Of a stretch of 64,000 nt of DNA, positions 9,070-43,651 are shown one piece after another. The stretch spans positions 2,240,001 through 2,304,000 of the forward strand of contig OY969564.1 in NCBI GenBank assembly GCA_963701095.1, given 5' to 3'. The notes under the pieces are model-generated. The model was given only the letters and a program-made list of their open reading frames with translations. It was not told the DNA's origin and did not search any database. How positions within the stretch are numbered: position 1 is the stretch's first letter; each line of letters begins with the position of its first letter. This DNA is from an uncultured Methanoregulaceae archaeon (GTDB taxonomy: Archaea; Halobacteriota; Methanomicrobia; Methanomicrobiales; Methanospirillaceae). A program made the position numbers and the translations under genes.

Positions 9070-10104
9070 TTATTTTCCGGAAGGCTTCCGGTGCAGGGAC
9101 TTGTCTTCCTCGACAATATAGTTGATTACATTCTCTGAAATATCTGCAGCGTACTCTCCTGACCTGCGGATACTCTCGGCAATATAGCTGACAGAAACAG
9201 CCATCATCGTCTCCTGTTTAAAGGCAAGGTTGTGGATGTCGCCGCAGATATGTTCAAGGGCCGAAACCGATTCGATAGTCTTATGGGCCTCCTTGATATC
9301 GGCATTAAAAAACGAAATAACGCTCTTATCAAAGATTTGCATAGACATCGCACTTGCCTTCTTTAATGAAGTTATGATCTTCGGGTCGAGCTCGGTATCC
9401 ATCACCGGTTGTGCATTCTCGGCAATCCGTACGGCATGATCACCGATCCGTTCAATGATTTTGCTGATGAGGTGATAGTACATGGCCATACCGACCGACA
9501 CTTCCATCTTCCGCGAGAGGGACGGGTTCTGCATGATCATGTTGGTCTGCCGTGCTATCAGCCAGTTGAGCCGGTCTGAGTCCATATCCCGGTTAATCAC
9601 ATCAGTAGCAAGTGTCGCGTTATGCGTTTCAAGCGCCATAATGGCATCTTCATGCATGTTCCTGACAATCACAAACATCCGTTTTATGGTGTTATCAAAG
9701 GGCATCTCGGCAGGGTTGAGCAGATCTTTAATGAGGATAAGTGTATCGGTCTCTTCGATGACTTCCTGGCCGATAGTCATCTGGGTGAAGTCCCGGACAA
9801 CCGTACGGACAAATGGCGGGAACCGTTGTTTTGAGCTTATCCGGATTGTGGTAAACCCGGTAATGTATGTCCCGATAAGCATCCTGAACAGGAAGGAAGG
9901 GTCGGTAATATGACCGATATCGATCTCCTTGACCCGCTGGACCGGATCCTCAGTGGTCTTTTTGGTAACCAGAAGGGTACCATCGGGCTGGGTGATCAGT
10001 CCGACAGGATCGTTCTTCTTGATGCGCATTTCCTGGACCCAGTCTTTGGGTAGCGTAACGACAAACGATGACCCCCCGGTCATCTGTACACGGCGTATTT
10101 CCAT
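9070..10104 (-). CDS. phoU: Phosphate uptake regulator: N-terminal AbrB/SpoVT DNA-binding domain plus PhoU domains
   Basis: MEIRRVQMTGGSSFVVTLPKDW start; IERIGDHAVRIAE and IRRSGEYAADISE PhoU helices; AGGAGG RBS. Confidence 0.92.
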   Translation of the reverse strand: MEIRRVQMTGGSSFVVTLPKDWVQEMRIKKNDPVGLITQPDGTLLVTKKTTEDPVQRVKEIDIGHITDPSFLFRMLIGTYITGFTTIRISSKQRFPPFVRTVVRDFTQMTIGQEVIEETDTLILIKDLLNPAEMPFDNTIKRMFVIVRNMHEDAIMALETHNATLATDVINRDMDSDRLNWLIARQTNMIMQNPSLSRKMEVSVGMAMYYHLISKIIERIGDHAVRIAENAQPVMDTELDPKIITSLKKASAMSMQIFDKSVISFFNADIKEAHKTIESVSALEHICGDIHNLAFKQETMMAVSVSYIAESIRRSGEYAADISENVINYIVEEDKSLHRKPSGK

Positions 10105-10268
10105 TTTCTGTTTACCTCCTGATGAATAGAGCGGTATGATGAATATGCTTAACTCTATTTTCACTCTTAAAGCATATATACCTGTATAGTCTATGTCGAA
10201 AAATTGTATATCATCTCGAAGTTAATATTCGTTTGAATATCAAAAGACGATGAATATGGGGGGCAGAT

Positions 10269-10766
10269 ATGAAAAATGAAACGATACTTTTTATCTGCTC
10301 TTTTAATTCGGTCAGGTCCCCCATGGCTGAAGGAATTCTCCGGCACCGGGATGTCTGCCGGCACTATACCATCTGCTCTGCAGGAATAGCGCCGGTCCGG
10401 GTCCGTCCCGGCGCAGTTGCGGTCATGCAGGAGATGAAAATAGATATATCTGATCATCTCCCTGCTTCACTCTACCAGTACCGGAATGAACATTTCGATT
10501 ATGTCATCACGCTTTGCAATAATGTCCGGGGGACGGCTGAAGAGATGCTGGTAGGTGGGGACCGGTTTATTCACCGGGATTTTGTCAGCCCTTCGGAAAT
10601 AGGGAAAACACACGGGGAAATTCTTGAGGAATACCGGAAATTGCGCGACGAGATCGGGGCATGGGTCGACGAGCTTTTTCCGGCTGCCGCCTTGGCGCCG
10701 GGAAAAAATAATGGCGAAATAAAGGCTGGTGCCACTATTTCTCCCATTTCTACCGGACACGCATAA
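10269..10766 (+). CDS. LMW-PTP/ArsC-family protein (arsenate reductase-like, non-canonical active site)
   Basis: ILFICSFNSVRSPMAEG P-loop, SAG, FDYVITLC, RKLRDEI. Confidence 0.85.
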   Translation: MKNETILFICSFNSVRSPMAEGILRHRDVCRHYTICSAGIAPVRVRPGAVAVMQEMKIDISDHLPASLYQYRNEHFDYVITLCNNVRGTAEEMLVGGDRFIHRDFVSPSEIGKTHGEILEEYRKLRDEIGAWVDELFPAAALAPGKNNGEIKAGATISPISTGHA

Positions 10767-12289: not shown

Positions 12290-13192
12290 ATGGCTGCGGA
12301 AACGGACAGTTTTGAGAAGTTTTTTGAGATGTATAAGCGTTTTTGCTACATTTTCGGTCGGTCTTTTGATCGGAACCCCAACCGCGATATCATCAAACTG
12401 ATCTACCAGGCCGATCTTGAAATGACCCCGGGGATGTTTACCTCGTTATGGATTGTCACGACGATGGTCGTCGGTACTTTGATGATTATTATTGCCGCAT
12501 TCATTTTCCTGCTCCCCCAGAGCCCGTTTGCAATGCCGGCTCCTTTGCCCTACATACTGCTCTTTGCTCTTATCGGTGCAGCTGCAGTTGCTATTGGTTT
12601 TCCCTTTTACCTGCAAAACCAGATCGAGAATAAAAAGCGGGATATCGATACCCAGGTCCCGTATGCCCTTGCATTCATGTCGATCCTTGCAAGTTCGGGT
12701 GCTACGCCACTCGATATTATCCGGAGGATTGCCCGGGAAGAGTACGGCCAGATCTCCAATGAGTTTCGCAAAGTGCTCTTCCGGGTGGATGTACTCGGGG
12801 AAGATGTGGTCACCGCGATGAACGGGCTTGTGCAGAATACGCCGTCCGATATATTCCGGGACATCTGCATCGATATGACCAACATTATCTACGGTGGTGG
12901 GGGCCTGAAATCCTATCTTGAGACCAAGTCAAAAGAACTCATGTCCATCCGCCGCCAGACCTACAAGGAATTTGTGGAGTCGCTCGCCGTATTCGGTGAG
13001 GGATATCTCGGGGGAGTAGTCATGACTATTACCCTGGCTGTGCTGGGCGTGGTGATTACCGGTGCTCTCGGTATCCAGATAGGGCCATTTTCCGCACAGG
13101 ATTTGTTCAATTACCTGGTTTACCTGTTGATCCCGCTCATCAATGTGATCTTCCTGCAGATGCTGGCTGTGAAATATTCGACTACCCCGTGA
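12290..13192 (+). CDS. Type IV pilus platform protein (T2SS-F/TadC/FlaJ-like)
   Basis: IDTQVPYALAFMSILASSG...YGQISNEF....DVLGED, typical of archaeal TadC. Confidence 0.92.
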   Translation: MAAETDSFEKFFEMYKRFCYIFGRSFDRNPNRDIIKLIYQADLEMTPGMFTSLWIVTTMVVGTLMIIIAAFIFLLPQSPFAMPAPLPYILLFALIGAAAVAIGFPFYLQNQIENKKRDIDTQVPYALAFMSILASSGATPLDIIRRIAREEYGQISNEFRKVLFRVDVLGEDVVTAMNGLVQNTPSDIFRDICIDMTNIIYGGGGLKSYLETKSKELMSIRRQTYKEFVESLAVFGEGYLGGVVMTITLAVLGVVITGALGIQIGPFSAQDLFNYLVYLLIPLINVIFLQMLAVKYSTTP

Positions 13193-13198: not shown

Positions 13199-14566
13199 AT
13201 GCCTGCGCCACCTAAGAACAAACCGGTCAATAAGAAAATGGATGAACTCCATGAGATTATCGAACGGATACGGATCAAGTACAACCCGCCGCGGGAACTG
13301 TTCACGATCGCTATTCCGGTAGCTATTGCCCTGTTGGTCGTTTTATCTGCATTTTTGATGGGATATACTCTTCACACCACGCAAAAACAAGTAACTGTCA
13401 CCACAAGTGACAAAGAAAAAGCACTGCAGGCATACCTTGCACAAATGAACAACGAGGGCGGCAATGGTACAGAAGAATCTGCTAATATAACGCCGACAAC
13501 ACCTGTAGCTCCAACAATGGGACTGGACGAGGTGATGGTATTTGCTCTCCTTATCGCTATTATCCCGTACGCGGTGGATATTACAATCCAGAAAAGGGCG
13601 GTTCGTAAAAAAGAAGAGCTCTATACCGAGTTTCTTTTCAAGCTCTCTGAGCTGATGAGAGGCGGTCTCGATCCGATAAAAGCGGTAAAGGAACTCTCTA
13701 AAACTGATCTTGGTGTTCTGACCCCGCATATCCGCATCGCATCGACATCGATGACCTATGGAAAATCCTTTGAAGAGGCCATGAAGGCGATGTCGAAATC
13801 GCTTCACTCCGAGTTGATTACCAGGTATACCATGCTCGTTGTTCAGGCTTCATATTCAGGGGGGTCAGTTGCTGATCTTATTCTCAAGGCCTCAGAAGAT
13901 ATGCGGAGCATTATCTCAATAGAAAGGGAAAAAGAAGGTAACCTTCACCAGTATGTGATGATCTTCTACTTTGCTCAGGCGATTATCATATTTATCGTCT
14001 ATATCCTAACGACAAGCCTGCTCCCGTTCGTAGCACAGATAGGTGCCACCCAGATGTTTGGTAAATCAGATATTGGTGATATCGATTTTGCCCGGGGATT
14101 CTTTCATATGATCATTCTCAACTCCATATTCGGTGGTCTGATTATTGGTAAGATCAGCGAAGGGGAGGCACGGTACGGTCTCAAGCATGTCGTGGTGCTC
14201 GTCGCCGTGGGGTATATTGCATGTGCTCTGTTTATACTTCCTCCGCCGGTTGCACCGGTCGGACCAAAAATCAATATTACTGTCGTATCCGGGGATCAAC
14301 AGACTGGAGTTATTGCATTACCGCTTTCAAACCCCATTGTTTTCCAGCTTACAGATGCAACTGGTAATCCTGTGAATAGTACATCGGTTTCATTCAGCAT
14401 AGTACCGAGTGGGTCAGTGAATCCGGTGTCGGCTACCTCAGATGATAAAGGACAAGTAGAGACGAAAGTCATTTTCGGATCCGATTCGGGATCTTATATT
14501 ATTACTGCAACGGCAAATGGAGTTTCCACTAAAGCAACCGCAATAGCAAAAACAGGAGGAAGTTAG
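13199..14566 (+). CDS. Second T2SS-F/TadC platform protein with C-terminal Big_1/invasin-type Ig-like domain
   Basis: EFLFKLSELMRGG...GLIIGKISEG...GLKH; tail VSGDQQTG...LTDATGNPV...V.F...SATSDDKG...ITAT. Confidence 0.9.
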   Translation: MPAPPKNKPVNKKMDELHEIIERIRIKYNPPRELFTIAIPVAIALLVVLSAFLMGYTLHTTQKQVTVTTSDKEKALQAYLAQMNNEGGNGTEESANITPTTPVAPTMGLDEVMVFALLIAIIPYAVDITIQKRAVRKKEELYTEFLFKLSELMRGGLDPIKAVKELSKTDLGVLTPHIRIASTSMTYGKSFEEAMKAMSKSLHSELITRYTMLVVQASYSGGSVADLILKASEDMRSIISIEREKEGNLHQYVMIFYFAQAIIIFIVYILTTSLLPFVAQIGATQMFGKSDIGDIDFARGFFHMIILNSIFGGLIIGKISEGEARYGLKHVVVLVAVGYIACALFILPPPVAPVGPKINITVVSGDQQTGVIALPLSNPIVFQLTDATGNPVNSTSVSFSIVPSGSVNPVSATSDDKGQVETKVIFGSDSGSYIITATANGVSTKATAIAKTGGS

Positions 14567-14570: not shown

Positions 14571-15035
14571 ATGCCAAAAAATATTGTTTGTATTATATCG
14601 TTATGTCTGCTCATTGTTGCAGCAGTGAATATTTCCGGTTGTACATCAAATATGCCAAATGTCCAATCGAATAAGACAGTGTTAAGTTCAGATCCTCAAA
14701 TAGGTATTCATGAATGGGTATACGCTGTAAACAACAAAAATATCGCCATGCTATATGATCTTGAACCTGACGGTTTCAAGCAGGAGATTTCATTAAGTCA
14801 ATTCGCCATCTTAAATAAAGATAATGAATTTATGAATCCTAATTCAAGTCTCACAGACTACACGATCCTCAATGAAACGAGTAATGCAACCACCGCAAAC
14901 ATTAGAGTGATGGTACATTGGTATGGACCAAAATCCCCAAATTCTACACAAATGGAGACAGTTCCCCTGTTGTTCAATTTTGAGGAATCATATGAAAATG
15001 GGGGCTGGAGAGTCTGGGAAATTCCATGGCAATAA
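14571..15035 (+). CDS. Putative lipoprotein (possibly NTF2-like fold), last gene of the TadC operon
   Basis: Hydrophobic N-terminus ending in the ISGC lipobox; C-terminal ENGGWRV; 4 bp after the previous stop. Confidence 0.7.
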   Translation: MPKNIVCIISLCLLIVAAVNISGCTSNMPNVQSNKTVLSSDPQIGIHEWVYAVNNKNIAMLYDLEPDGFKQEISLSQFAILNKDNEFMNPNSSLTDYTILNETSNATTANIRVMVHWYGPKSPNSTQMETVPLLFNFEESYENGGWRVWEIPWQ

Positions 15036-19136: not shown

Positions 19137-19751
19137 CTATCCGTGTCGCTCTCTGGTATCGATTAGGAATCCTTCATCGCTCACTGTGAAAGGTAGCATC
19201 TTTTCAGAAAGCTTGGCTCCCTGCATTTTGGGGATATTGAGAAAACGTTTGAGTTTATCCCCTTCAATTACGGTGGTCACCTGAATAATCCCGTCTGCCA
19301 TAGCCCGCAAAAGTGCCTCATGCCGTTCGGGGAGAACACCGCGATCTACAAGCAGGAGGAGAACATGGCCGGTTTTTGCTGCGGTGAGGAGCCGGGAAAT
19401 AGCGTCCCGGAATTCGGAAAGAGGCGTATCAAGGAAATAGAGTGAAAACTGATCTACGATCACCAGGTTGCAGTTCCCAGGGAGTGTAAGAATATCAAGG
19501 AGCGGTCCGGGAGCGGTTCCGTGCATTTCTTCAATATGGAATCCCTTCACCGGCAAAATTCTCAGGAGTTTCATGTCATCGCGGATCTCGTCTGATGCTC
19601 TTGTGGTGATATAACACACGTCTTTTCCGTCAGCTGCCGCCTCTGAGGCTATATATTGGGCATAGATTGATTTGGCGAGCCCCAAATCTTCTTCAATCAG
19701 GATCACGCTCTTTTTCGGAAAATTATCTAAGCCATGAACGAGTGTCATCAA
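19137..19751 (-). CDS. Single-domain KaiC/RAD55-like RecA-superfamily protein with degenerate Walker A
   Basis: VCYITT, LVIVD.FS, MADGIIQ, RFLNIPKM, PFTVSDEGF.IDT. Confidence 0.8.
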   Translation of the reverse strand: MMTLVHGLDNFPKKSVILIEEDLGLAKSIYAQYIASEAAADGKDVCYITTRASDEIRDDMKLLRILPVKGFHIEEMHGTAPGPLLDILTLPGNCNLVIVDQFSLYFLDTPLSEFRDAISRLLTAAKTGHVLLLLVDRGVLPERHEALLRAMADGIIQVTTVIEGDKLKRFLNIPKMQGAKLSEKMLPFTVSDEGFLIDTRERHG

Positions 19752-29539: not shown

Positions 29540-29695
29540 ATCTATATTGAATTACCTCCTATCCCGTCTGAATTAAAAATATATATAGCCTATTGTGATC
29601 ACTATATTGAAAAGCCTTAAATCTATATCAAAAACGCTAAAAATATATAGTCAAAGGTCGATATGGTGATTGGTGAATTGACATCTGTGGGGGAT
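29540..29695 (+). promoter_or_regulatory. pstS upstream region with phased (C/A)TATAT repeats and a TCTGTGGGGGAT box
   Basis: CTATAT at 29542, 29602 and 29623; ATATAT at 29581 and 29643; 12-mer at 29684-29695. Confidence 0.5.
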
Positions 29696-29789
29696 GAATG
29701 AACTTCACCAGCAAGAACTCCGTGGCAAATCCCTTAATACTACAAATTTTTCTACAAATCCCATCCACGAACACCAAAGGTGAAAAGTA

Positions 29790-31956: not shown

Positions 31957-33071
31957 TGAAACGGCGTTATGTCAAAGGTCAGATCATCAAGATAATCTGC
32001 GGCACTATTGCGTTTCTTCTTGCGGGGATGCTCATCCTCATCGTTGCAATATGTCTTATCAAAGGATTCCCCTCCCTTAACCCGAAATTTTTTCTCGTTA
32101 CCGAAAACGTGGCCGGGGGTTACAAGGGAATAGGGACGGGCATTGCCAATGCTATTGAGGGTACGTTCCTTCTCGCTCTCACATCTACCTTACTCGCTCT
32201 TCCATTCGGTGTGGGCACAGCAATTTATCTCCAGAGATATGCGCCAGATAACCGGTATACCAGGTCACTCCGGTTCATTATAGAAGTCCTTGCTGGTACG
32301 CCATCAATAGTCCTTGGTATTTTTGGCGTGATTGTCCTTGTTATTTACCTAAAACCTATAACCGGGGGAGAATCGTTATTTGCAGGTGCTATTGCTCTTT
32401 CTATACTTGTACTTCCGGTTATAATCCGGGCCACAGAAGATGCAATTATCCGGGTGCCATCAGAGCTTGAGGAAGCCAGCTATGCCCTTGGTGCTACGAA
32501 ATGGCTGACTCTGAAAAATATCACTATTCCCGTTGCCCTTTCCGGTATTGTTGTCGGTGCTATTCTCTCGTTTGGCAGGGCTGCTGAGGAATCGGCTATA
32601 GTAATTCTGACCGCAGGATATTCACAGTATGCCCCGGAATTTAAGGTTGTTGCTAACCCGACGTTTTTACTCGGTATAAAAATATATCCCCTTAACAATC
32701 TTGTTGGAACTATCCCGACACTGATCTATACAGGGTATGAAAATTCTGGTGTTTACCCTGAATCTTTCGTCTTTGCCGCGGCCTGCGCTCTCATTATGCT
32801 CGTTTTGATCATCAACCTCTCGGCAAAGATCATTCTCGCATTTGCAACGGCAAATATGAAGGGAAATCAGGATACCCTTTTATCTTCCCTTTTTGAACCT
32901 TTATCAGACCCCTTCCACAGGAAAAAACCAAAAAAAATACCTTCATGTAGCGACGTGGAGACTGTATCCGTGGCATCAAAAGAATTATTTTCCAAACCGG
33001 AGGAGATCCTCACTTCCGAACCGCCGAATGAGTCAGCCCGGGAAATGCAAAGCTTACCCAGGTACTGCTGA
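31956..33071 (+). CDS. pstA: Phosphate ABC transporter permease PstA, possibly fused to the next ORF
   Basis: AIEGT, LAGTPSIV.G.FG, EEASYALGATKW, GRAAEESA; TGATG coupling to pstC. Confidence 0.93.
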   Translation: MKRRYVKGQIIKIICGTIAFLLAGMLILIVAICLIKGFPSLNPKFFLVTENVAGGYKGIGTGIANAIEGTFLLALTSTLLALPFGVGTAIYLQRYAPDNRYTRSLRFIIEVLAGTPSIVLGIFGVIVLVIYLKPITGGESLFAGAIALSILVLPVIIRATEDAIIRVPSELEEASYALGATKWLTLKNITIPVALSGIVVGAILSFGRAAEESAIVILTAGYSQYAPEFKVVANPTFLLGIKIYPLNNLVGTIPTLIYTGYENSGVYPESFVFAAACALIMLVLIINLSAKIILAFATANMKGNQDTLLSSLFEPLSDPFHRKKPKKIPSCSDVETVSVASKELFSKPEEILTSEPPNESAREMQSLPRYC

Positions 33072-34611
33072 ACTATCTGTCGATTCCACGCTCAGTAATG
33101 CTGAAAATCTCTCCGTTGCCCCTAGCAAGAAAAAATTTTCTGTTGGTGCCGGGATTAAACGGGGTTTTAATACTATTAGCCAAAAAACCCGTATTTTTGT
33201 CCATGACACCGGGAAAAAGGAAACTACTGCAAAAATGGCCACGGTTCCTGGCAGCTCAGATTACCTCGGTCCCATTCGTAAAGTGAAGATCTCCCATATT
33301 AGGAATATTATAGTCTCATTCAGATCGTTCCTCGTTACTCTCGCCCCGTTTGCATTGGTTACTGTAATTCTCGTAGCTCTAACCGCTATGCTACCTGTTC
33401 TGTCACCAGTAGGATCTAATGGGCCGGCTGGTTCCCTGACTGTTCCCCTCATGACTCTAATCATATGCGTGATCGGAACGGTATGTGCTCTCTTCCTTGT
33501 GCGTAATAGTACTCTCTTTTTATTGCGGCGCCAAAAGGGACGAATGGGGAACCGGCGTGCTGAGTTCGCCGCGATCGCAATCGGATTTTGTTTTGTCCTT
33601 TTCGGTGCATTCATGTTTTCCGTTCATATTTTCTCACCCGTCCCGTCAATTCAGTCTCCGGGTTCAGGAGCATCAACGGGTACAGGCATATTCAGTTACT
33701 TCACTCCTTCAGGAAATGGCGGACTTTCTGAAATCAGTGGATTAGTTTTTAATAACAGCCTGTTTAGCTTCGTTTATAAGCCTGGAAATGGGACAACCCC
33801 CCAGGCCACGGACACATCCAACAGGGCCGCACAGATGGCAGCACTACTGGCTTCTGAAGAGACACCCGTAGCGACAACTACAACTCCCCAAAGCACACCG
33901 GCAGCACTCCAACCCTCACCAGTGCTGTCCTCCTCTACAGCGGTGTCATCACCAGGATCGGTCGTTCCGGTAAAAAACGCGCTTGATATAGGAGAATCCT
34001 ATTGGTATGGCGATAACAGCCGGCCGTGCTTGGCGACGATTTACAATGCAACAACTATGCCACTCTATTTCTATTGGGATATAGACTGGAACCGGTTTGT
34101 CCAAGTAACTCCGGCATCGAGCGGGGACACATTCCTGGTTATCTTCATCCGCATCGAAGACACAGGAAATATGAGTGCCATTGTCCCGCCTGGAGCTCAG
34201 TATGTTGTTTATTATAAAGGTCAGGCATATTACAACGAACCGTATTTCGATACTTCTGTCCTCGATGCGAACGAAATTAGTATTTATACGGCTAATTTCA
34301 ATCTCCTTCCCTACCAGTGGATCCGCGAGATCGGGCAGCAAAGGCGAGATTATGCCTTCCTGACCGGGTATAACATCTTTGGTCAGAACCAGACTCTTGA
34401 ATCAAATTATTCGGCCAATACCCAGTTCGCCCCCCCAAGTGCCACCACTCCCAACGGGGAAGGTTGGTTTATCAAGCCCGGACGGAGCAATGCCATAGAT
34501 GGGTACCTGATCTATGAAGTCCCGGGAGCTGTTGCAACGGATCTCAAAGATACCTACGTTCAGGTGCCTTTCAATAGTTTCAGCTCAACTCAATGGCGCC
34601 TCGGAAAATAA
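33058..34611 (+). CDS. Three-TM protein with Ser/Thr/Pro linker and extracellular DUF4352-like Ig domain; probable C-terminal extension of PstA (alternative start 33235)
   Basis: Open frame overlapping the pstA end; GDTFLVIFIRIEDTG and IKPG...DGYLIYEVP are typical of DUF4352-like domains. Confidence 0.7.
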   Translation, partial: PGTAELSVDSTLSNAENLSVAPSKKKFSVGAGIKRGFNTISQKTRIFVHDTGKKETTAKMATVPGSSDYLGPIRKVKISHIRNIIVSFRSFLVTLAPFALVTVILVALTAMLPVLSPVGSNGPAGSLTVPLMTLIICVIGTVCALFLVRNSTLFLLRRQKGRMGNRRAEFAAIAIGFCFVLFGAFMFSVHIFSPVPSIQSPGSGASTGTGIFSYFTPSGNGGLSEISGLVFNNSLFSFVYKPGNGTTPQATDTSNRAAQMAALLASEETPVATTTTPQSTPAALQPSPVLSSSTAVSSPGSVVPVKNALDIGESYWYGDNSRPCLATIYNATTMPLYFYWDIDWNRFVQVTPASSGDTFLVIFIRIEDTGNMSAIVPPGAQYVVYYKGQAYYNEPYFDTSVLDANEISIYTANFNLLPYQWIREIGQQRRDYAFLTGYNIFGQNQTLESNYSANTQFAPPSATTPNGEGWFIKPGRSNAIDGYLIYEVPGAVATDLKDTYVQVPFNSFSSTQWRLGK

Positions 34612-34878: not shown

Positions 34879-36951
34879 ATGAAAATAAACATTTTAGGCA
34901 ATAGGAAAAAGATCTTAGGTGACAGGAAACAGCTCCGTATTCCCCGCATCAGGAAACAGCTCCATATTCCTCTTGTCATAGGTGTAATCATTATCCTGCT
35001 GGGGCTTGGGATGTATTTCCACTTCCTGCCGAGTATTGGCAGTTTTACACATATGTTTGAACCTGAAGTTACTGCGGCTCCAGTCCAGTCACTGGCAGAC
35101 GCAGGTGCGCCGCTCAGTATCCCTCTTACAAAGCCACTCATCGCTGATTTCCTGGCTTCACCTGGAAATCAATCAGACCCCCTCTCCGTACAGTTTTTTG
35201 ATATGAGCCGGGGTGATCCGGATACTTGGAAATGGGACTTTGGTGACAACACGACTTCAACCGTTCAGAACCCGGTTCACGATTATGCCCAACAGGGTAT
35301 CTATAATGTTACCCTGACGGATACACGTGGAGATGGAGCCAGCAGCACTATCACCGCTTACGACGTTATGGACACCCGGGAAAACACCGAAAATTCCGTG
35401 CTTTTCGATACTATCCGTGATGGCGTCATCAAAAAAGGCTCGTTTTTATCCTTCGTAACTGCCGACAGCAGCTCATCTGTCTCCGTGAATGGCAAACAGA
35501 TCCAGCTGCCGGTGGGATCCCTTGTAAAAATCCGGGCTGACTTTGACACCACCGGCACCATAACCCTTCGCGGCAGCAATATTCTTGGTTGCAGTATTGC
35601 TGATGGCACTCTTTTTGTGAACGGTGCACAGGCTGCTATCGGTAGTTTTTCGAATTGTGTCATACCATCAGTCCGAAACTATCATGCAAACATTACTTTT
35701 GCGATCAAACCGACACTGGGGGAGGTCAGACAGATCCTGATCAACGGTAACAAAATCCTTGCCGGGCAGGAAAACTCCTATATGGTCGTTTCTGAGGACT
35801 CCCAAAATCCCGGAAATGATCTAAGTCTTATAACCCTCCCCGGGTACTACGAGGGAAGCGCTTCCCGGTATTCGATCTCACCGGCGCTGATCGCTGGTTT
35901 TGTAGCAACATCAGCAAGTGAAGGAAGCACTCCACTTAATGTCTCATTTATGGATCAATCGGCCGGTTCACCAAACTCATGGTTATGGACATTCGGTGAC
36001 GGGACCAGTTCCGATGAACAGAATCCCACACATCTCTATTCCTACCCGGGGACGTATGATGTGACCCTCACGGTGAAAAATGGGGAACAGACCGATACTG
36101 TTGGACTTGATAACGCGGTGATCGTCACTCCGCCTCGGGTTGTGGCCAACTTTTCGGCACAGCCGCTCACGGGCACAGTGCCTCTTACCGTAAAATTTGC
36201 CGACCAGTCCACCGGGTCCCCGACATCATGGGACTGGACCTTCCAGGAGATCTCGTGGAATCAGACATTCTATACTTCCAGCACCACCGTTTACGCCACA
36301 TCAACTGCCCAGAATCCCCAGATAACCTTCACCGATCCCGGCACGTATGACGTCTGGCTTACGGTTGGCAATGTCTATGGCAGCAGTGATATGCTTAAAC
36401 CCCAGTATATCGTAGCCACCCCGTGGCCATACAGTATTCCCAATAATGATATAATATTCAAAACGGGGAAACCCGGCTATCTTGAAGAGGCTTCAAGCGC
36501 ACAATTTGTCGTGAGTAACACACCTGCTTCAATTACGATCAACGGGACATATCACGATCTTCCAAAAGGTGCAACCGTGCGGTTCGTGGCAGACAGCGAC
36601 CAGCAGGGTGACATAAGCGTTGTCCGCAACAGCATCATAAAATTTGCATTCCCGGACATGGCGGTTTATGTGAACGGCGATCTTCTCGATCAGGGCACTA
36701 TTGGCGACATCTATATTCCCTCCATGAATCAGTTCCAGACGAACCTCACGTATTATTTCTCGCCAAATTCGTCCCAGACTTATGAGACAATTAACGGGCA
36801 AAAGTACCTTTCCGATCTCGACAATGCATGGATCCGTATCTATAACCTTGGTCCGGATGAACAGGGGTCGCTTTCGCTCATATCAGCGGCAAATACAACT
36901 TCTATAGAGGGTGCCGAGAACCAGACGGTTCAGGACTGGATTCTCCAGTGA
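34879..36951 (+). CDS. Membrane-anchored PKD-domain surface protein (three PKD domains and two copies of an unassigned beta domain)
   Basis: WKWDFGD...QNPVHDY, WLWTFGDG...QNPTHLY, WDWTF...QNP; N-terminal TM. Confidence 0.9.
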   Translation: MKINILGNRKKILGDRKQLRIPRIRKQLHIPLVIGVIIILLGLGMYFHFLPSIGSFTHMFEPEVTAAPVQSLADAGAPLSIPLTKPLIADFLASPGNQSDPLSVQFFDMSRGDPDTWKWDFGDNTTSTVQNPVHDYAQQGIYNVTLTDTRGDGASSTITAYDVMDTRENTENSVLFDTIRDGVIKKGSFLSFVTADSSSSVSVNGKQIQLPVGSLVKIRADFDTTGTITLRGSNILGCSIADGTLFVNGAQAAIGSFSNCVIPSVRNYHANITFAIKPTLGEVRQILINGNKILAGQENSYMVVSEDSQNPGNDLSLITLPGYYEGSASRYSISPALIAGFVATSASEGSTPLNVSFMDQSAGSPNSWLWTFGDGTSSDEQNPTHLYSYPGTYDVTLTVKNGEQTDTVGLDNAVIVTPPRVVANFSAQPLTGTVPLTVKFADQSTGSPTSWDWTFQEISWNQTFYTSSTTVYATSTAQNPQITFTDPGTYDVWLTVGNVYGSSDMLKPQYIVATPWPYSIPNNDIIFKTGKPGYLEEASSAQFVVSNTPASITINGTYHDLPKGATVRFVADSDQQGDISVVRNSIIKFAFPDMAVYVNGDLLDQGTIGDIYIPSMNQFQTNLTYYFSPNSSQTYETINGQKYLSDLDNAWIRIYNLGPDEQGSLSLISAANTTSIEGAENQTVQDWILQ
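34924..34970 (+). repeat. Short in-frame tandem duplication (27-bp period) in the PKD gene N-terminus
   Basis: AGGAAACAGCTCCGTATTCC / AGGAAACAGCTCCATATTCC encoding RKQLRIP / RKQLHIP. Confidence 0.7.
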
Positions 36952-37133: not shown

Positions 37134-37990
37134 GGGTATAGTCCCATTCTAGCGACTAAACCTCGTGTTCCAATAGCTTGATAATACGCTTCACTTTATG
37201 ATTATCATTTTCATTTCTGTGATTGTACCTCCACACATACTCACCTAAGTAGAGAGGTAGTTTCTCTCGTCTGATACCGCCTTTCGACACCAGTTTTCTT
37301 TTCAAGTATCCCCAGAATCCCTCCAGACCATTGATGTGATTTCCTTTTCCGTCGCTATACTGTTTTTCACCATGATTGACAAGGCGATGAACATATCCAC
37401 GTGAAGCGATACCGGTGTATGCCTTCCAGGTATCGGAACAGATGACAGACCCTGTTGAAACTTTTCTTGAGATAAGAGGTTGAGGGGTTTCAGCTCCCAC
37501 GTCATCAACAACCTCGGCCCAGACCCTACCATTACGACAAAGAATTCCAAACACCGGTTGTTTCTTCGTACCCCTTCCTCGTTTAGTACCGTAATCCCGG
37601 AGCGTTTTTCGTTTGTTTTTCCATTGACCTCCGAGATATGTTTCATCAACTTCAACGGTGCCGGAAAAGATCTCCGGTACATCTTTTACGAGTGCAGTTC
37701 GGATCAACGTCAGTGCCCTCATGACTTGTTTTCGTTCAAGACCGGTCCGGATTGATATGTTATGGCTGCTCTGCTCCAAGAGGAACCAAGTGATAATTTC
37801 TTTCCACTGATCCTTTGTAAGATAGAGGGGAAGCCGGTGCAGTGTGAATTCATATTTGCACCGGGAACATTTCCTCTTCCCATTAGAAAGTAGGTAAACT
37901 TTTTTGGCCTCGCATTTTGGGCATGATATTTTTACCATTTCCTTCTCGTAATTCTTTTTACGAGTTGGTAGTTAAAATGGTACTTTACCC
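37134..37990 (-). mobile_element. IS1595-family insertion sequence, 857 bp, with 26-bp imperfect TIRs and 8-bp TSD TAAAAAAA
   Basis: Left GGGTATAGTCCCATTCTAGCGACTAA vs reverse complement of right GGGTAAAGTACCATTTTAACTACCAA (20/26); TAAAAAAA at 37126-37133 and 37991-37998. Confidence 0.93.
37156..37938 (-). CDS. IS1595/ISXO2-like DDE transposase
   Basis: Zn ribbon CPKC...CSRC, VEVDETYLGG, KRGRG, CSDTWKAY, HINGLEGFW, YL.EY.WRYN. Confidence 0.95.
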   Translation of the reverse strand: MVKISCPKCEAKKVYLLSNGKRKCSRCKYEFTLHRLPLYLTKDQWKEIITWFLLEQSSHNISIRTGLERKQVMRALTLIRTALVKDVPEIFSGTVEVDETYLGGQWKNKRKTLRDYGTKRGRGTKKQPVFGILCRNGRVWAEVVDDVGAETPQPLISRKVSTGSVICSDTWKAYTGIASRGYVHRLVNHGEKQYSDGKGNHINGLEGFWGYLKRKLVSKGGIRREKLPLYLGEYVWRYNHRNENDNHKVKRIIKLLEHEV

Positions 37991-37998: not shown

Positions 37999-38637
37999 TT
38001 ACTGGAGCTGTTGGATGAGCTTTGCCGTTGCAGTGATATTTGAAAGTGCATTATCGCCGTCTGCAATAGACGATAATGCCTGAGCCTTGGCATCCATTGC
38101 CTTCATCCGCAGGGAGTCGTCCCGGTAATCAGGATCGTTTACGGACAGATACCCGCTGAGATCCCGGTTATAATCAACGAAATGCTGCTGTGCATTATTC
38201 ATATCGATAGAATAGATTTTCATTTCCTGAAGCAAAAATCCCGTAAGCCAAGGAGTTTCTGTGTCATTTCCAAACGAAAGGGATGCAGTGTCAGAAGAAA
38301 ATGAATCTGTAGCAGATCCCAGTGTCGTACCTGCAGATCCCCACTGGTTAATGGCCTGCCCATCTGCAGCCACATCGCCTTGGAGTGTTGTAGTATCAGA
38401 AGAACCTTGAGCAGTCTCGTGATTATATTCGTTAAGCGTATTTCCTATCTGGGTTAGTGTGGAACTGACCTGCTTGGAGTAGGTAACCTGCTGACCTGCC
38501 CAGGCATTATAGGACTGCATGACCATTGTTGTATTGTGGGAATCACCCATCCGTGGGGTGGTGCAACCGGTGACAAGAATCGTGCATCCTGTCAGGAGAA
38601 GGAGAAAGAAAATTACATGGGCTCGTTCCATCATCAC
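37999..38637 (-). CDS. Putative lipoprotein, helical, hypothetical
   Basis: Hydrophobic N-terminus with LTGC/VTGC lipoboxes. Confidence 0.7.
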   Translation of the reverse strand: MMMERAHVIFFLLLLTGCTILVTGCTTPRMGDSHNTTMVMQSYNAWAGQQVTYSKQVSSTLTQIGNTLNEYNHETAQGSSDTTTLQGDVAADGQAINQWGSAGTTLGSATDSFSSDTASLSFGNDTETPWLTGFLLQEMKIYSIDMNNAQQHFVDYNRDLSGYLSVNDPDYRDDSLRMKAMDAKAQALSSIADGDNALSNITATAKLIQQLQ

Positions 38638-38771: not shown

Positions 38772-40076
38772 ATGTATAAATTGGGATTTGTTGCATGCCT
38801 CTTCGTCGTCGTTCTTGTCGGGGCATGCGGATGCTCTGTTGCATCTCCCGGAACTGGTCCAGTACCGGGGACAATGCCAACGTTACCTGCTACCTATATT
38901 GCCGGTGAAAATACACCTGCCGCGGAAACTTTCGTGATTACACCAACCCCGACGCCGCCAACTGCAGCGGTAAATATTTCTGGAGCTCAAACTAATGTGA
39001 CGCCTACCCAAGTCACCATTAACTGCAACGGTCAGTCATGTTCAGGTTTCGTTAATGTCACGCCGGGTAATCCTGATGCCCCGGTAAGCTCTTTTTCGGC
39101 GAATCCACAGTTTACGTATGTGCCGCCAAATTCCCCCAATCCGAATGTTTCAGTCCAGTTTACTGATACTTCGACAAATTCTCCGACATCGTGGGCCTGG
39201 TCATTCGGTGACACAAATCATAGCACCAGCTCGGTGGAGAACCCGACTTTTACCTATTATGGATACAATTATTATCAGGTCAGCCTCGGTGTGAGTAACC
39301 TTCTTGGACAGTCTTCGAGCACCGCTACTATCGCTGTTTGTCCTCTTGAAGCATCCTTTACGATGAACCAGACTACTGGTCCCGTGCCACTTACCGTCCA
39401 GTTCACCGATACTTCAAACAACCAACCCACGTCATGGTTATGGAACTTCGGGGACGGATCAACCAGCACCCAACAAAACCCCCTTCACCGGTACATCACA
39501 TCAGGAGTTTACACGGTCAGGCTGGATGCAACGGATGCTCTTGGCTCCTGCTGGAACACCAACCAGATCACCGTCTCGCCTTTGGTTGCATCGTTTATCG
39601 CTAACCAGACCAGTGGACTTGAACCTCTCACTGTCCAGTTTACCGATAAATCGACAGACCAGCCAATTTCGTGGCGATGGAACTTTGGTGACGGTGGAAC
39701 ATCCACTCTCCAGAATCCGGTCCACGTATACGCGACAGCAGGTTCGTATCTCGTAAATCTCAATGCCACGAACGGCTATGATGGATGGATGAGCGCTCCG
39801 CAATCGACGATCACCGTTTATTCCCTCCCTGCTGTATCCTTCACGGCAATCCCGACAACCGGGGCCGCCGGAACTTCCGTAGTATTTAATGACCAGAGCA
39901 CTGGCTCCCCCGCTCCCACATCTTGGTACTGGGACTTTGGCGATGGGTACAACAGCACATACCAAAACCCATCACACCAGTATGCCAGTGCCGGATTGTA
40001 TACTATCAGCCATTCGGCAACAAATGTGCAGGGAACGGAGTGGCTGAATAAAACGGCGTATATCTCTATATCATGA
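38772..40076 (+). CDS. Secreted/lipoprotein PKD-repeat protein (four PKD domains)
   Basis: Four VQFTD.S...PTSW.W.FGDG..S..QNP units; signal with GACGC; ATGA overlap with the next gene. Confidence 0.92.
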   Translation: MYKLGFVACLFVVVLVGACGCSVASPGTGPVPGTMPTLPATYIAGENTPAAETFVITPTPTPPTAAVNISGAQTNVTPTQVTINCNGQSCSGFVNVTPGNPDAPVSSFSANPQFTYVPPNSPNPNVSVQFTDTSTNSPTSWAWSFGDTNHSTSSVENPTFTYYGYNYYQVSLGVSNLLGQSSSTATIAVCPLEASFTMNQTTGPVPLTVQFTDTSNNQPTSWLWNFGDGSTSTQQNPLHRYITSGVYTVRLDATDALGSCWNTNQITVSPLVASFIANQTSGLEPLTVQFTDKSTDQPISWRWNFGDGGTSTLQNPVHVYATAGSYLVNLNATNGYDGWMSAPQSTITVYSLPAVSFTAIPTTGAAGTSVVFNDQSTGSPAPTSWYWDFGDGYNSTYQNPSHQYASAGLYTISHSATNVQGTEWLNKTAYISIS

Positions 40077-42257
40077 CACCCATACCACTTGCCAGCAGGA
40101 TCTCATCATTTTTTATTCACAAAGAGCCTGACGGAACTGAAACCGAGGTCTCTCTGGAAACACAGGACTCACCGTCAGAACAACCCGAAGAAAATTTTGT
40201 TCATAATGAGGCTAAGCCGGAACAGGACGTAATTCCTCAGATTCCTGAGAACCCGCGTCCGGTTTCACGTATCCAGAAGTTCATTTTGTACTTTGTTGAG
40301 CCGGAACTGGAACCGGACACAAAAACAACCGCTGTTGTCCCGGCACCAGCCAAAGAACCCCCCCAAAAACGTCCTGCCCTCCCTATAAAAGACCGGATTC
40401 ATGTACAACTGGCATCGTTAAGATCGTTTGGCCTGAAAATAGTATTGATTTTCGTCGAGCCCGGGTCCATTGAAACGGAGGCGGCTCCCCATCAGGATCT
40501 TCCTGCACTTTCTGAACCCGAATCTCCACAAGCGATCATTGAAGCTCCACCAGTCCAACCGGAACCCGTTCCAACCCTAACCGAAGAAAGCCAGGTCAGC
40601 TCCAGTCAAGGCCAAACCCTCTTTTATGGAGACGATCCGGTCATTACTCGTGTCGCCGGAAGCAAAGGAGATACAGACCCTTGATTTCGATCCGGGTGTT
40701 CTTGACGACCCATCCCTTGAGGGTTCGCTCCGGGATGTCAATATCACCTACAGGATCGATCCTCCGTACCAGTATGTGCATATCGAGTACAACAAACAAG
40801 AGGGGACCCTCATTTATTCCGTCGTAGAGCCGCAGCTCTCTGAAGATGAAAAAGTCGCCCTTGATATTATCGAGCAGGCATTCGAGAAACTGGTGAGTAC
40901 AAATCTCGAGATTATTGAGGGTGACCGGCGGACTGAATATCTCCGGGAACGGTTTTATTCCCTAGTCAATATATTCGGCCTCAAACTGACGGAACACCAG
41001 AAAGAGCGGATGTTCTTTGTGCTCAAACGACAGTATCTCGGGTACAGCCGGATCGACACCCTGATGAAAGACAAATATATCGAAGATATCAGCTGCAACG
41101 GGTCGGATATCTTCCTCTATGTCCAGCACCGTATCTATGGTTCCATCCGGACCAACGTGAAATTCGGAGAAGTTGAGCTCAACAATTTTGTCCTGAAACT
41201 TGCTCAGGTCGGCGGCAGGCATATCTCCCTCCTCCAGCCCATCCGTGACGTCTCGCTCCCAGACGGGAGCAGAGGAAACCTTACGCTCGGTGGTGAAGTA
41301 ACACGGAAAGGATCGACGTTTACCATCCGTAAATTCCGTGCAAACCCTATCTCACCCATCGAAATGATGGACTACCACTCGGTCGATGCGATGGAACTTG
41401 CGTATTTGTGGATCCTGATGGAATACAAGCGATCGATTCTTGTTTCCGGGGGAACTGCAACCGGTAAAACCACATTTTTAAACGTCCTGTGCAGTTTCAT
41501 TCCGCCTGAGTACAAGATTGTCTCTATCGAAGACACCGCTGAGCTTAACCTGATGCACCCCAACTGGATCCAGTCCATTACCCGGGCCGGGTTTGGCAGT
41601 TCCAGTGGCGGAGAGTCTGTGTCCGGGGTAAGCGGCGTCTCTTCTAAAACCCCGGGTGACATCTCGCTTTATGACCTGCTTGTTGCAGCTCTTCGTCAGC
41701 GTCCTGAGTTCATCATCGTTGGTGAAGTCCGGGGCAGCGAAGCGTTCACCCTGTTTCAGGCAATTGCTGTCGGGCACGCGGCCCTAGGGACCATCCACGC
41801 CGGGTCCATGGATGAACTCCTCGCCCGTGTGGAGTCAAACCCCATGAACGTTCCCCGGAGCCTTTTCTCCAACCTCGATGTCGTGCTCTTTCCCATGCAT
41901 ATCAAGAAAGGGGAACGGAGTATGCGGCGCCTGGCCAATATCGTCGAGATGCTGGAGTCTGACCGGGATTCAGGGGACCTTATCACGAACACCGTCTTCA
42001 AATGGCAACCTGATATCGATGAGTTTCAGTACCAGGGCCGCAGTTTCCTCTTTGACAAGATCAAAGATACCCATGGTGTAAGTAAAGAGTTACTCAACCA
42101 GGAACTCAAGGACCGGACAGCATTCCTGCTTAACCTGCAGAAGTCAGGTATACGGGAATACAACGCGGTAACCGAGCAGATCCGGGCATATTACCGGGAT
42201 AAACCCGCGGTGATGAAAGAGATTATTGCGGTCCAGACAGATGCAATTGAAGCGTAA
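40073..42257 (+). CDS. Type II/IV secretion (archaeal pilus assembly) ATPase with Pro/Glu-rich N-terminal extension; frameshift near 40578, or independent start at 40626
   Basis: IEDISCNG, FTIRKF, Walker A GGTATGKTT, SIEDTAEL, LRQRPEFIIVGEVRG, TIHA; the downstream frame is open back to 40581 (PKKARSAPVKAKPSF). Confidence 0.93.
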
Positions 42258-42424
42258 AGTACGTTTATAAGTCTTTTATCGATTCCCCGGGACTATTTTG
42301 TTAGTTAGATAAAATATGGATTAGTTTTTACTTTACCTTTAGATTAGAGGAGGATCGATTGATCTATTCTGCGCTATTTTGGGGAAAAGAGATTATTTCC
42401 GTTAGATAAATTGACAAATTACGA

Positions 42425-43651
42425 TCAACAGGGAAACGCTGGATCTTTGACCTGTACGGGTATTGCTGGGAATGTTCCATAGATGACGTTTATCGTTCCA
42501 TTTCCCGATGTCACATTAGTCCATACATTTCCATATTGATCGGTTACATTGGAGTAAGGATTAAACACGAAATTACTGTTGTAGGGATTTGAACCAAGAA
42601 CAAAATTTACGGTCTGAGCGGGGGGATATAACGGAGGATTCCCGTCAATATCCTTTAACTTCACAAAGACTCCCGTCACAGACCCGGAACCGTTAAGATA
42701 ACAGAATGTTTGCACAACCGGGTTAACTATGGGGACATAATTCTGATCAGCGGGAATAACCTCTGATTCTGAAACCCCGGTCATCCCGACATTATCGGTT
42801 ACCTCAAGGTTGACGAGGAATGGACCTGCATCCATCGGCGTAAAATGTGTGGTTTTTCCATGGGTGACATTCGCAATCATATCAGATGTGTCCGTCCAGT
42901 TACCCGGTGCCGGTTTTGTGTTTGCACCGCTGTAAATAGTCCAATTCCAATTGGAAATTGTGTTATCTGATGTAGATCCCGAACCGTCAAGTACCAAAAC
43001 ATCCCGCTGAAAAGGACCTAAGTTTTCATTATCTATGGAAGTTCGGAAATCGGCGATAGGGGGCTTATATGTTTGTTGAAAGAAGTTATTGAGTGAAGTC
43101 ATAACAATGATCTTGACCTGAGCATTTGTGGGGATGAACGTGTTACTGTTGAGGAACGAGGGATCGGTAAAATTGACCTGAATTTCCTTGCTCTGGCCTC
43201 CGGGAATGCCTATGGTACCCAAAGCGGACTGGTTAAGATTTTGTTCGTATTCGTATGGCAGGCCATTTGTCGTCCCGTTGAATACAGTAATATTATTGAC
43301 ATATTGTATGTTGTCTGATCCCGTACCTGATATGGCAATAGCGACAATGCCTACACCGTCTGTATTCAGGTTCACCAGGTGAAGGGTCATTGAACTCCAG
43401 TTTTCCGAATTAGTAATATTATATGGAGCAGGGGTCTGGTTCCAGGCATTAGGATCATTTTGGAAGTTTACCGTTGAGAACTGAACATTCTCAGCTTTTA
43501 CTTCTGCAATATGCTCCTGCTGGTTCGCCGCAGTTTTCTGCATCTGGGAGATCATGAGACCGAGAGCAGCCGCAGCAGTGACCGTTATCAGGATGAGCAG
43601 AAGCGTTCCTATAATAACAGAAACGCCCTTATCGTTTAACGGCCGGGTCAT
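42425..43651 (-). CDS. Large (minor) type IV pilin with class III signal and PKD-like domain
   Basis: NDKG|VSVIIGTLLLILITVTAAAAL; PPIADF...VLDGSGSTSD...WNWT...LEVTDN.G. Confidence 0.88.
   Translation of the reverse strand: MTRPLNDKGVSVIIGTLLLILITVTAAAALGLMISQMQKTAANQQEHIAEVKAENVQFSTVNFQNDPNAWNQTPAPYNITNSENWSSMTLHLVNLNTDGVGIVAIAISGTGSDNIQYVNNITVFNGTTNGLPYEYEQNLNQSALGTIGIPGGQSKEIQVNFTDPSFLNSNTFIPTNAQVKIIVMTSLNNFFQQTYKPPIADFRTSIDNENLGPFQRDVLVLDGSGSTSDNTISNWNWTIYSGANTKPAPGNWTDTSDMIANVTHGKTTHFTPMDAGPFLVNLEVTDNVGMTGVSESEVIPADQNYVPIVNPVVQTFCYLNGSGSVTGVFVKLKDIDGNPPLYPPAQTVNFVLGSNPYNSNFVFNPYSNVTDQYGNVWTNVTSGNGTINVIYGTFPAIPVQVKDPAFPC

Follow-up and report, generated by a model that had tools for sequence, protein, structure and literature searches.

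The bindosome of Sulfolobus joins ATP-binding cassette (ABC) transport to the machinery of archaeal type IV filaments: binding proteins of ABC transporters carry class III (pilin-type) signals, and a FlaI/TadC-type pair of proteins has been proposed to place them at the cell surface (available parts of PMC3047682 and PMC13705601). In the proposal of Sivabalasarma and Albers (2026; PMC13705601), as far as available to us, binding proteins of class III serve widely to "functionalize" type IV filaments; they are said there to be encoded, as a rule, with ABC transporters and not at pilus loci, and a link to a specific locus is said to need validation. Binding proteins with such signals are widespread in archaea, and outside Sulfolobus none is known to have been tied to a particular pilus machine. 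Here, we analyse a gene cluster of an uncultured Methanoregulaceae archaeon in which a phosphate-binding protein with a pilin-type N-terminus (PstS) and the phosphate permeases PstC and PstA are encoded together with the assembly ATPase, the platform and a large pilin of a type IV filament machine. The cluster occupies positions 9070 to 43651 of a stretch of 64,000 nucleotides (assembly GCA_963701095.1, contig OY969564.1, positions 2,240,001 to 2,304,000), which is referred to below as the window.

The pairing of phosphate and pilus genes is already catalogued in the literature searched, where it stands without interpretation. Table S4 of a 2016 census (PMC4858521), as far as it was available, gives for M. 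petrolearius the order TadC-TadC-FlaH-arCOG09548-PstS-PstC-PstA-FlaI-arCOG09549, for Methanolobus psychrophilus a compact operon and for M. boonei two locus halves without pst genes; it also records the arCOG09549 pilin and the ATPase group of the window in Methanosarcina acetivorans C2A; arCOG09548 and arCOG09549 are recorded in the available parts of the census in only 2 and 4 genomes, respectively. The terms "Pst", "ABC" and "transporter" have 0 mentions in its main text as available, and the accessible text of PMC13705601 contains none of "phosph", "PstS" and "Methanomicrob". The searchable part of the supplementary text of the latter holds no PF12849, PBP_like_2, PstS or phosphate; its figure S9, an image of the top Pfam domains, may show PBP_like_2. 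No paper on a pilin-type PstS in methanogens was found in the literature searched.

We conclude that the cluster very probably represents a conserved functional unit, in which a second, PstB-less phosphate ABC system is combined with a dedicated archaeal type IV filament machine. With moderate confidence, and by analogy, this unit would be a phosphate version of the Sulfolobus bindosome that is not orthologous to it, displays PstS at the surface and borrows the PstB of the canonical pst operon; that PstS is carried on an extended filament is a tentative and on balance doubtful proposal. As far as sequence can tell, co-occurrence and synteny support the phosphate-specific, bindosome-like machine put forward in the original prediction, which had been made from the window alone, and the recurrence of the cluster across many methanogens suggests a surface structure for phosphate scavenging.

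Gene products of the cluster and their relation to known systems

The open reading frames (ORFs) of the window between 9 and 44 kb were scanned with Pfam and NCBIfam. The genes of the filament machine and of the phosphate transporter are the following (coordinates, strand, product):
12290..13192, +, TadC1, N-terminal half of a split FlaJ/TadC platform (T2SSF, 1.5e-15; FlaJ positions 5-216 of 555)
13199..14566, +, TadC2, C-terminal half of the platform (T2SSF, 1.3e-14; FlaJ positions 300-542 of 555)
19137..19751, -, FlaH/ArlH-like protein of the RecA/KaiC family with a degenerate Walker A motif (KaiC, 4.6e-11; ArlH, 46.7 bits, cut-off 215)
29790..30994, +, PstS-like protein of about 400 amino acids (aa), in two frames in the window (PBP_like_2, 5.1e-11; Pilin_N, 0.0022)
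31039..31956, +, PstC permease (TIGR02138, 273.3 bits, cut-off 196.45)
31956..34611, +, PstA permease with a C-terminal extension of about 500 aa (TIGR00974, 232.4 bits, cut-off 193.45)
40073..42257, +, FlaI/PilB-type assembly ATPase, about 727 aa including a Pro/Glu-rich extension at the N-terminus (T2SSE, 1.4e-31; PilB3_C)
42425..43651, -, large class III pilin of 408 aa, by position arCOG09549 (TIGR02537, 31.6 bits, cut-off 20)

Both TadC proteins pass PF00482 (57.7 and 54.7 bits, cut-off 25.2), and since the two adjacent genes match the N- and C-terminal halves of FlaJ, they are regarded as one split platform; TadC1 orthologues in related loci have 39-90% identity. The ATPase passes PF00437 (110 bits, cut-off 24.9), and the FlaH/KaiC-like gene at 19137-19751(-) is an added member of the set. 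A prepilin peptidase is encoded in the same genome by a 397-aa ORF at 2194206-2195399(-), outside the window (PF01478, 31.2 bits, cut-off 26.5, at G000:C1:2195175-2195351). A T2SSE ATPase, a TadC platform, a class III pilin and a genomic prepilin peptidase, as expected of an archaeal type IV filament system, are present. Among the filament parts named in the original prediction, the two TadC proteins, the ATPase, the 408-aa pilin and the PKD-repeat surface proteins were recovered by Pfam and NCBIfam; the "pilin-like gene" at 23651-24175 matches no family, lacks a class III motif, is without relatives among 30 related loci, and was dropped.

For the large pilin, an AlphaFold2 model (mean pLDDT 75) places a helix at residues 8-53 and, C-terminal to it, three beta-sandwich domains; a Foldseek search of this model against the PDB gave only generic tandem Ig/FN3 matches (TM 0.15-0.28) and no functional lead. 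Orthologues of this pilin are present in related loci. TadC2 carries at residues 378-447 a C-terminal Ig-like domain (Big_1 / invasin D3-like, 7.7e-7, below the Pfam cut-off), which is unusual on a platform protein.

The ATPase is set apart from the other assembly ATPases of its genome. The four further ATPase/TadC loci found there encode ATPases at most 43% identical to it, versus 52-96% for its orthologues, whose open frames span 690-961 aa in the order sample described below. In a phylogenetic tree, the 25 pst-linked ATPases group together (support 96/95), separate from three paralogues encoded in the window's genome, which made up a small and long-branched outgroup. The best NCBIfam matches of the ATPase, the TadC halves and the RecA-like protein are the archaellum proteins FlaI, FlaJ and ArlH/FlaH, the scores lying below the equivalog cut-offs (381 vs 550, 77 vs 550 and 46.7 vs 215, respectively). 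Unlike an archaellum locus, the cluster has no archaellins and no FlaCDE/FlaFG genes. A separate ATPase-TadC locus at 1814-1817 kb, flanked at 1800-1814 kb by ORFs with pilin-type N-termini, is taken to be the archaellum locus by position alone.

The available parts of PMC4858521 allow a comparison with the euryarchaeal clade 2 pili, such as Haloferax PilB3/PilC3. The cluster shares with them an ATPase of the FlaI family whose C-terminal domain is PilB3-like, a pair of tadC-like genes, neighbours of the KaiC/FlaH family and pilins with the euryarchaeal N-terminal helix; it differs in that the usual small PilA-family pilins are absent from the locus. No small canonical major pilin was found in the cluster, as the original prediction had noted, and a scan of four compact loci gave no small class III ORF, the class III N-termini there belonging to PstS (3/4) and the large pilin (4/4; 370-440 aa) only. 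PstS, put forward for the role of major pilin in the original prediction, is a candidate for it. A Ddp/Dpp-type ABC transporter stands among the clade 2 pilin genes of M. boonei in the accessible part of Table S4 (rows 9337-9351); its binding protein has one membrane segment and the transporter adjoins another ATPase-TadC pair. Further transporter-pilus pairings may occur in these methanogens.

Like the Bas bindosome, the cluster appears from its genes to join a class III-type binding protein with an ATPase-platform pair. It is nevertheless not a Bas orthologue: the ATPase scores 192.4 bits on the BasE model NF053672 (cut-off 1000), BasF (NF053673) gives 27.3 against 1300, and in the available parts of PMC4858521 the M. 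petrolearius orthologue of the window ATPase belongs to Clade_2 and Bas to subclade 4I. The two systems differ further in substrate (phosphate versus sugars), in the placement of the binding protein and permeases, which lie here in the operon of the machine and in Sulfolobus are encoded apart (PMC13705601, as far as available), and in composition, with one large pilin, a split platform and a FlaH-like gene here and three small BasABC pilins there.

With the canonical PstSCAB-PhoU system, the cluster has in common PstC and PstA recognized by curated models, a PstS-like protein that appears to share the fold family and the binding signature, and PhoU-type genes nearby. The differences are the lack of a clustered PstB, in whose place the pilus ATPase gene is found, a PstS that is of the pilin type and not the lipobox type and that scores below the curated cut-off, and the long C-terminal extension of PstA in the Methanoregulaceae. 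This extension consists of extra membrane segments and an extracellular domain without family match. A single ORF encodes PstA together with the extension in 11 of 13 Methanoregulaceae loci; Methanolinea-type loci have a shorter version (about 485-620 codons for PstA in all), and Methanoculleus-type loci have none. The open frame of the ATPase overlaps the end of pstA in six Methanoculleus-/Methanofollis-type loci (L018, L019, L021, L022, L024 and L027), so that the pilus ATPase occupies the normal place of pstB in the operon.

ABC permeases dock their ATPase at an EAA-type loop. The pattern of this loop is kept in 24 of 28 PstC relatives and 25 of 31 PstA relatives, in the window's own proteins and in the canonical PstCA. 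Since the ATPase-docking loops are kept, the PstCA of the cluster should still need a PstB. None is encoded in the window, and the sole PstB of the genome above the cut-off (2188916-2189677, matched over 2188919-2189659) belongs to a canonical operon 48-52 kb upstream of the window (2188256-2192624(-)), which encodes a lipobox PstS, a fused PstCA, PstB and PhoU. The original prediction had correctly placed PstB and the prepilin peptidase outside the window; both lie in the same genome, 45-51 kb upstream. Housekeeping genes separate the window from the canonical operon and the peptidase gene, and the flanks of the region also consist of housekeeping genes. Five other carriers of the cluster, from four families, each have a canonical fused pstCA and pstB elsewhere and none in the cluster. 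An exception to this arrangement is seen in three Methanolinea-type loci (L016, L017 and L025), where a pstB-phoU-arsC-like group leads codirectionally into the gene of the large pilin and pstB has no neighbouring pstCA. The idea that Methanolinea-type genomes lack a canonical pstCA does not hold in general, as G031 has a fused pstCA and pstB on the same contig.

Frameshifts in the window sequence

Three genes of the cluster are interrupted in the window: pstS changes from one frame to another near 30330, pstA ends at 33071, and near 40600 the ATPase is severed from its N-terminal extension, the extension ORF (40073-40684) and the T2SSE ORF (40626-42257) being out of frame. Contigs of four public runs (X1, X2, X6 and the RNA run X10) were aligned on window positions 29700-42300. 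In X1, whose long pieces differ from the window in no further letter across more than 12 kb, the base at 33061 and the base at 40597 are missing and an additional base is present within 29925-30953. X2 and X6, too, are without the two bases missing from X1, and X2, X6 and X10 have a 95%-identical pstS with a net length difference of -5, which is frame-equivalent to one added base. Because the short-read contigs do not share them, the three indels are assembly errors; pstS and the ATPase gene as pseudogenes are thereby ruled out, and three intact proteins result: PstS with about 400 aa, PstA reaching into ORF 32893-34611, and the ATPase with about 727 aa. Extension and ATPase form a single ORF in 5 of 5 loci checked, and the nearest PstS relative, P0001, is an intact protein of 399 aa with 95% identity. 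The gene models of pstS, the end of pstA and the ATPase, each of which is broken in the window by a one-base assembly indel, are corrected accordingly.

A carbamoyltransferase gene that lies outside the region (54730-55469) is likewise broken into two ORFs, several of the ABC ATPase matches elsewhere in the genome contain stops, and the single-contig genome has a completeness score of 86%. The split carbamoyltransferase and the completeness fit an indel-prone assembly, and gene models in this genome should be read with care.

The pilin-type PstS

The family profile of PstS matches 31 solved PstS structures (best 2e-21), and PstS itself passes PF12849 (43.3 bits, cut-off 27). In an alignment of 12 pilin-type PstS proteins (A1), which are 40-69% identical to its first sequence, the GSTT, GGxSG, DIG and RxxxSGT positions of the presumed binding signature are invariant. 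The protein starts with MKRMNNDMAVSPIVATLVLIVVAVIGAVAVGTIMG, has an AVSPIVATL... N-terminus and contains the motif AVSPIVATLVLIVVAVIGAVAVGTIMG. The family profile also matches the N-terminus of the solved archaellin 8fk7_A (E=4.6e-4), which agrees with the pilin N-terminus assigned to PstS in the original prediction. Class III-like N-termini were found 14 times in the window's genome; a binding protein carries just one of them, with a helix that is unique. The signal of the canonical PstS encoded in this genome is a lipobox.

The N-terminal helix is more conserved than the rest of the protein. Residues 12-46 are invariant in A1 except for positions 28, 39, 42 and 43, and among 110 full-length PstS homologues the mean pairwise identity is 95% over the 35-residue helix versus 38% over the rest, the first figure being inflated by sampling with helix words. 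PstS proteins reached via the ATPase in Methanolobus and other families have nearly the same helix. Such conservation would exceed the need of a plain membrane anchor and fits packing on the platform, the peptidase or filament neighbours. The helix of the large pilin is also conserved and resembles that of PstS. In modular bacterial type IV pilins, for example PilB of Streptococcus sanguinis, a functional module is grafted on the pilin N-terminus. The layout of a helix plus a large domain is alike in PstS; the bacterial modules are adhesins, whereas the module here is an archaeal ABC binding protein.

The RNA run X10 contains a 1229-letter contig that covers pstS from a strain with 95% identity; the other genes are scarcely represented in this run. 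The contig is a weak hint that pstS is transcribed in wetland soil, given that contigs cannot rank expression and that the library may contain DNA.

A further conserved feature precedes pstS, within 29560-29790:
29664..29716, +, conserved leader element, predicted two-stem hairpin, between a TATA-like box (about 29642-29650) and pstS

A block of about 45 bases of this element is near-invariant in 13 Methanoregulaceae loci, occurs in a variant form in L033 and is unique in the genome. Of the 12 predicted pairs, 3 have changes on both sides; the inner stem is invariant, and the outer stem GGTGAA/TTCACC is replaced by GTAAAG/CTTTAC in L033. Rfam contains no family for the leader, the only match being ceN82 at chance level (E=0.2). 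The element may act as a leader RNA or as a site for a repressor where transcription starts. An upstream ORF was considered and ruled out, as indels after the hairpin break the frame among relatives. CTATAT boxes upstream of pstS, tadC1 and the pilin gene sit in AT-rich spacers, and nothing is claimed from them.

Co-occurrence and synteny in related genomes

Two samples of genomes were searched for the ATPase clade and for pilin-type PstS. The order sample comprised 200 species genomes without the window's own. The ATPase clade (E<=1e-140) was found in 13 and pilin-type PstS (E<=1e-15) in 12 of them; 11 had both, 2 the ATPase only, 1 PstS only and 186 neither. Nine of the 11 pairs are on one contig, 2.6-9.6 kb apart; the contigs of the two ATPase-only cases measure 2.5 and 3.8 kb, and the PstS match of one genome counted with both (G049) is a 49-residue fragment. 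The corresponding numbers for the phylum sample of 400 genomes, which has three carrier genomes in common with the order sample, are 25 with the ATPase clade, 24 with pilin-type PstS, 22 with both, 3 with the ATPase only, 2 with PstS only and 373 with neither. Here, 21 of the 22 pairs are within 11 kb on one contig, and the 22 genomes represent six family codes, 14 of them one code. The pairing of the ATPase clade with pilin-type PstS exceeds chance. A lack of such co-occurrence had been named in the original prediction as a finding against it, and the outcome in both samples is the opposite.

With A1 as query, 30 related loci with 10-kb flanks were pulled from species genomes, mostly of Methanoregula, other Methanoregulaceae, Methanolinea, Methanoculleus and Methanofollis, and the window proteins were searched in them. 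An ATPase orthologue (at least 50% identity) is present in 24 of the 30 loci, and the number is likewise 24 for the 27 loci whose downstream flank reaches 5 kb or more; TadC2 was found in 19, the FlaH-like protein in 23, PstC in 25 and the large pilin in 10 of the 30, the last lying beyond the flank in expanded loci. Three loci without the ATPase have enough flank: the orthologue of L005 is on another contig (77% identity), L028 (Methanolobus) has a separate full cluster elsewhere, and L033 (a bin labelled bacterial) has none. When loci were cut out by the ATPase alone, the same neighbours and the same PstS N-terminus were found.

A compact one-strand operon pstS-pstC-pstA-ATPase-tadC1-tadC2 is present in L029, L034, L040 and L041, and the entry for Methanolobus psychrophilus in Table S4 of PMC4858521 has this order too. 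In L034, L040 and L041, the FlaH-like gene and the large pilin gene are beside the operon, in two of them together with a PhoU-AbrB gene. The 35-kb spread of the genes in the window is a lineage-specific expansion of this compact operon; in the Methanoregulaceae, insertions of regulators, PKD surface proteins and housekeeping genes would have lengthened an ancestral compact form. A pilin-type PstS gene is directly upstream of the ATPase gene in L038, with no pstCA between them. As this locus lacks permease genes, the constant partner of the machine is the pilin-type PstS. The region containing L038 and L039 (G315:C2:337000-370000) has four PstS-like ORFs with the same pilin-type N-terminus, three of them longer (541-679 residues past the motif); they surround an ATPase-tadC1-tadC2-pilin operon without pstCA, near other ABC ATPase genes.

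Proposed function and alternative explanations

In the mechanism that we consider, PstS would be synthesized with a pilin-type signal and processed by the prepilin peptidase of the genome, and its hydrophobic N-terminal helix would be handled by the ATPase/TadC platform. PstS, probably with the large pilin, would be assembled or positioned into a short pilus-like or bindosome-like surface structure, where its domain, to judge from the binding signature, would bind phosphate. The phosphate would be handed to PstCA, which pass the curated models and have kept their docking loops, and PstCA would be powered by the PstB of the canonical pst operon.

If true, the bindosome concept would no longer be confined to sugars in thermoacidophiles but would include phosphate in methanogens that live in phosphate-poor peat and wetland soils; a pilus clade so far lacking a function would gain one, and the mechanism would bear on the competition of methane producers for phosphorus. 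Binding protein, permeases and dedicated ATPase/platform form one operon in many methanogens, which makes the dependency directly testable.

Several points weigh against this reading. The N-terminus of PstS is below the Pfam Pilin_N cut-off (19.2 vs 25.2 bits, E=0.0022) and has no TIGR02537 match at E<=0.001 in the NCBIfam scan, and on the curated model TIGR02136 PstS reaches 45.1 bits, far under the cut-off of 206.6. Cluster and compact loci are devoid of a small major pilin, a globular domain of 360 aa on every subunit would be unusual for a filament, and a PstS fixed in a filament would still have to reach PstCA at the membrane. Three genomes (G371, G400 and G523) have an ATPase match, the weakest ones with 50-52% identity, without pilin-type PstS, two (G059 and G387) have a PstS match without the ATPase, and no ATPase in the genome of L013 exceeds 43% identity. 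The 30 loci and the PstS homologues were gathered via words of the PstS N-terminus, which biases both the synteny tally and the helix figure; the ATPase-first searches, i.e. both samples and the ATPase-centred loci, offset this bias only in part. Since related genomes are not independent, the co-occurrence counts overstate the number of independent events and are to be read as counts, not as probabilities.

The alternative that survives best, which we consider unlikely, is that of separate but co-regulated functions: the large pilin, perhaps along with the PKD proteins, would be built into an adhesion pilus by the ATPase/TadC machine, and pilus and high-affinity Pst system would be induced together when phosphate is scarce, the PstS helix being an anchor after cleavage that bypasses the pilus machine. 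Operon linkage as such denotes co-regulation and not physical assembly, the three Ig/PKD-like domains of the large pilin are adhesin-like, PKD surface proteins are inserted in the Methanoregulaceae clusters, and without a small major pilin in evidence PstS need not be a filament subunit. This explanation, however, does not account for the near-confinement of pilin-type PstS to genomes with the ATPase clade (22 of 24 in the phylum sample), for the lipobox signal on the canonical PstS of the same genome, or for a PstS helix that is near-invariant in a protein of otherwise 38% identity, and in L038 PstS stands beside the ATPase even where pstCA is missing.

Rather improbable is a secretion or insertion device, comparable to a type II pseudopilus or acting by extraction, which would move PstS or the PKD proteins into the space of the S-layer or through it, or free PstS from the membrane, and leave no lasting filament or array. 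A single ATPase and the missing small major pilin are compatible with such a device, and the Ig-like domain of TadC2 or the PstA extension of the Methanoregulaceae could hold a freed PstS near the permease. To our knowledge, no archaeal type IV filament acts as a secretion piston, which weighs against this explanation; moreover, the class III proteins of the cluster keep the long hydrophobic helices typical of assembled subunits, and the PKD proteins are absent from the compact clusters and are thus not a conserved cargo.

A dynamic variant of PstS display, a "phosphate fishing rod" in which a filament of large pilin and PstS is pushed through the S-layer and disassembled by the same FlaI-type ATPase, is a very unlikely possibility. 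If true, loaded PstS would return to PstCA, filament turnover would be a step of transport, and the pilus ATPase would be a second energy input to phosphate uptake.

Chance neighbourhood or a decaying remnant in an accessory island can practically be dismissed: the out-of-frame pstS, pstA and ATPase genes of the window, the IS1595-family transposase at 37156-37938 and the patchy distribution of the cluster (3 of 15 genomes of the genus) are in its favour, but the short-read contigs of X1, X2 and X6 are free of the frameshifts, the split carbamoyltransferase and the 86% completeness fit an indel-prone assembly, and the co-occurrence and synteny counts exclude chance.

Other genes of the region

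The remaining genes between 9070 and 43651 for which features were recorded are the following:
9070..10164, -, PhoU-domain protein with an N-terminal AbrB/MazE-type DNA-binding domain (PhoU, 1.4e-22; MazE_antitoxin, 3.6e-10)
10269..10766, +, low-molecular-weight phosphatase / ArsC-like protein (LMWPc, 3.2e-16; ArsC models 66-70 bits, under their cut-offs)
14571..15035, +, small secreted protein with a lipobox-like N-terminus (from the translation; no family match)
20008..20454, +, 148-aa membrane protein (from the translation; equivalence to Table S4 by position only)
26037..26798, DUF47-like protein (Pfam/NCBIfam scans)
34879..36951, +, PKD-repeat surface protein, an insert specific to Methanoregulaceae clusters (PKD_4, 8.9e-39)
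37156..37938, -, IS1595-family transposase, between the first PKD gene and 37999-38637
37999..38637, -, conserved secreted protein with a lipobox-like N-terminus (from the translation; copies with 34-75% identity in related loci)
38772..40076, +, second PKD-repeat surface protein (PKD_4, 4.6e-55; copies in related loci)

The phosphate genes that the original prediction had seen interleaved with the filament genes, i.e. those for the PhoU-AbrB protein, the ArsC-like protein, the DUF47-like protein, PstS, PstC and PstA, are all confirmed at the coordinates given in the two lists. The PhoU-AbrB protein is, by its domains, a candidate phosphate regulator, and relatives of its gene adjoin the cluster in L016, L017, L034 and L041. 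An ArsC-like gene is located between a canonical pstSCAB-phoU operon and tadC1 in L010, L014, L020 and L023. Relatives of the small secreted protein at 14571-15035 come after tadC2 in Methanoregulaceae loci, and in the available part of Table S4 of PMC4858521 the gene at this position in M. boonei is arCOG08058, a "predicted pilin family protein".

Between tadC2 and the FlaH-like gene, at 15088-19086, the window encodes a response regulator and two histidine kinases (PAS; CHASE4-HAMP). The same two-component insert is present in M. boonei according to the accessible part of Table S4 (PMC4858521), and its genes are candidates for the regulation of the cluster. A trio of genes at 24853-28412 encodes a 366-aa protein, a DUF47/PhoU_div-like protein and a 533-aa protein, the last of which matches only the N-terminal part of pyruvate phosphate dikinase (positions 14-523 of 865). 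The trio is also found directly after the pilus ATPase gene in L008 and may represent another phosphate-related module.

Copies of the PKD-repeat protein at 34879-36951, 42-73% identical, are in the same place in 14 loci. In relatives, the first PKD gene and the homologue of 37999-38637 are 200-350 bases apart; the IS1595 element that lies between them in the window is also present in the X1 contig.

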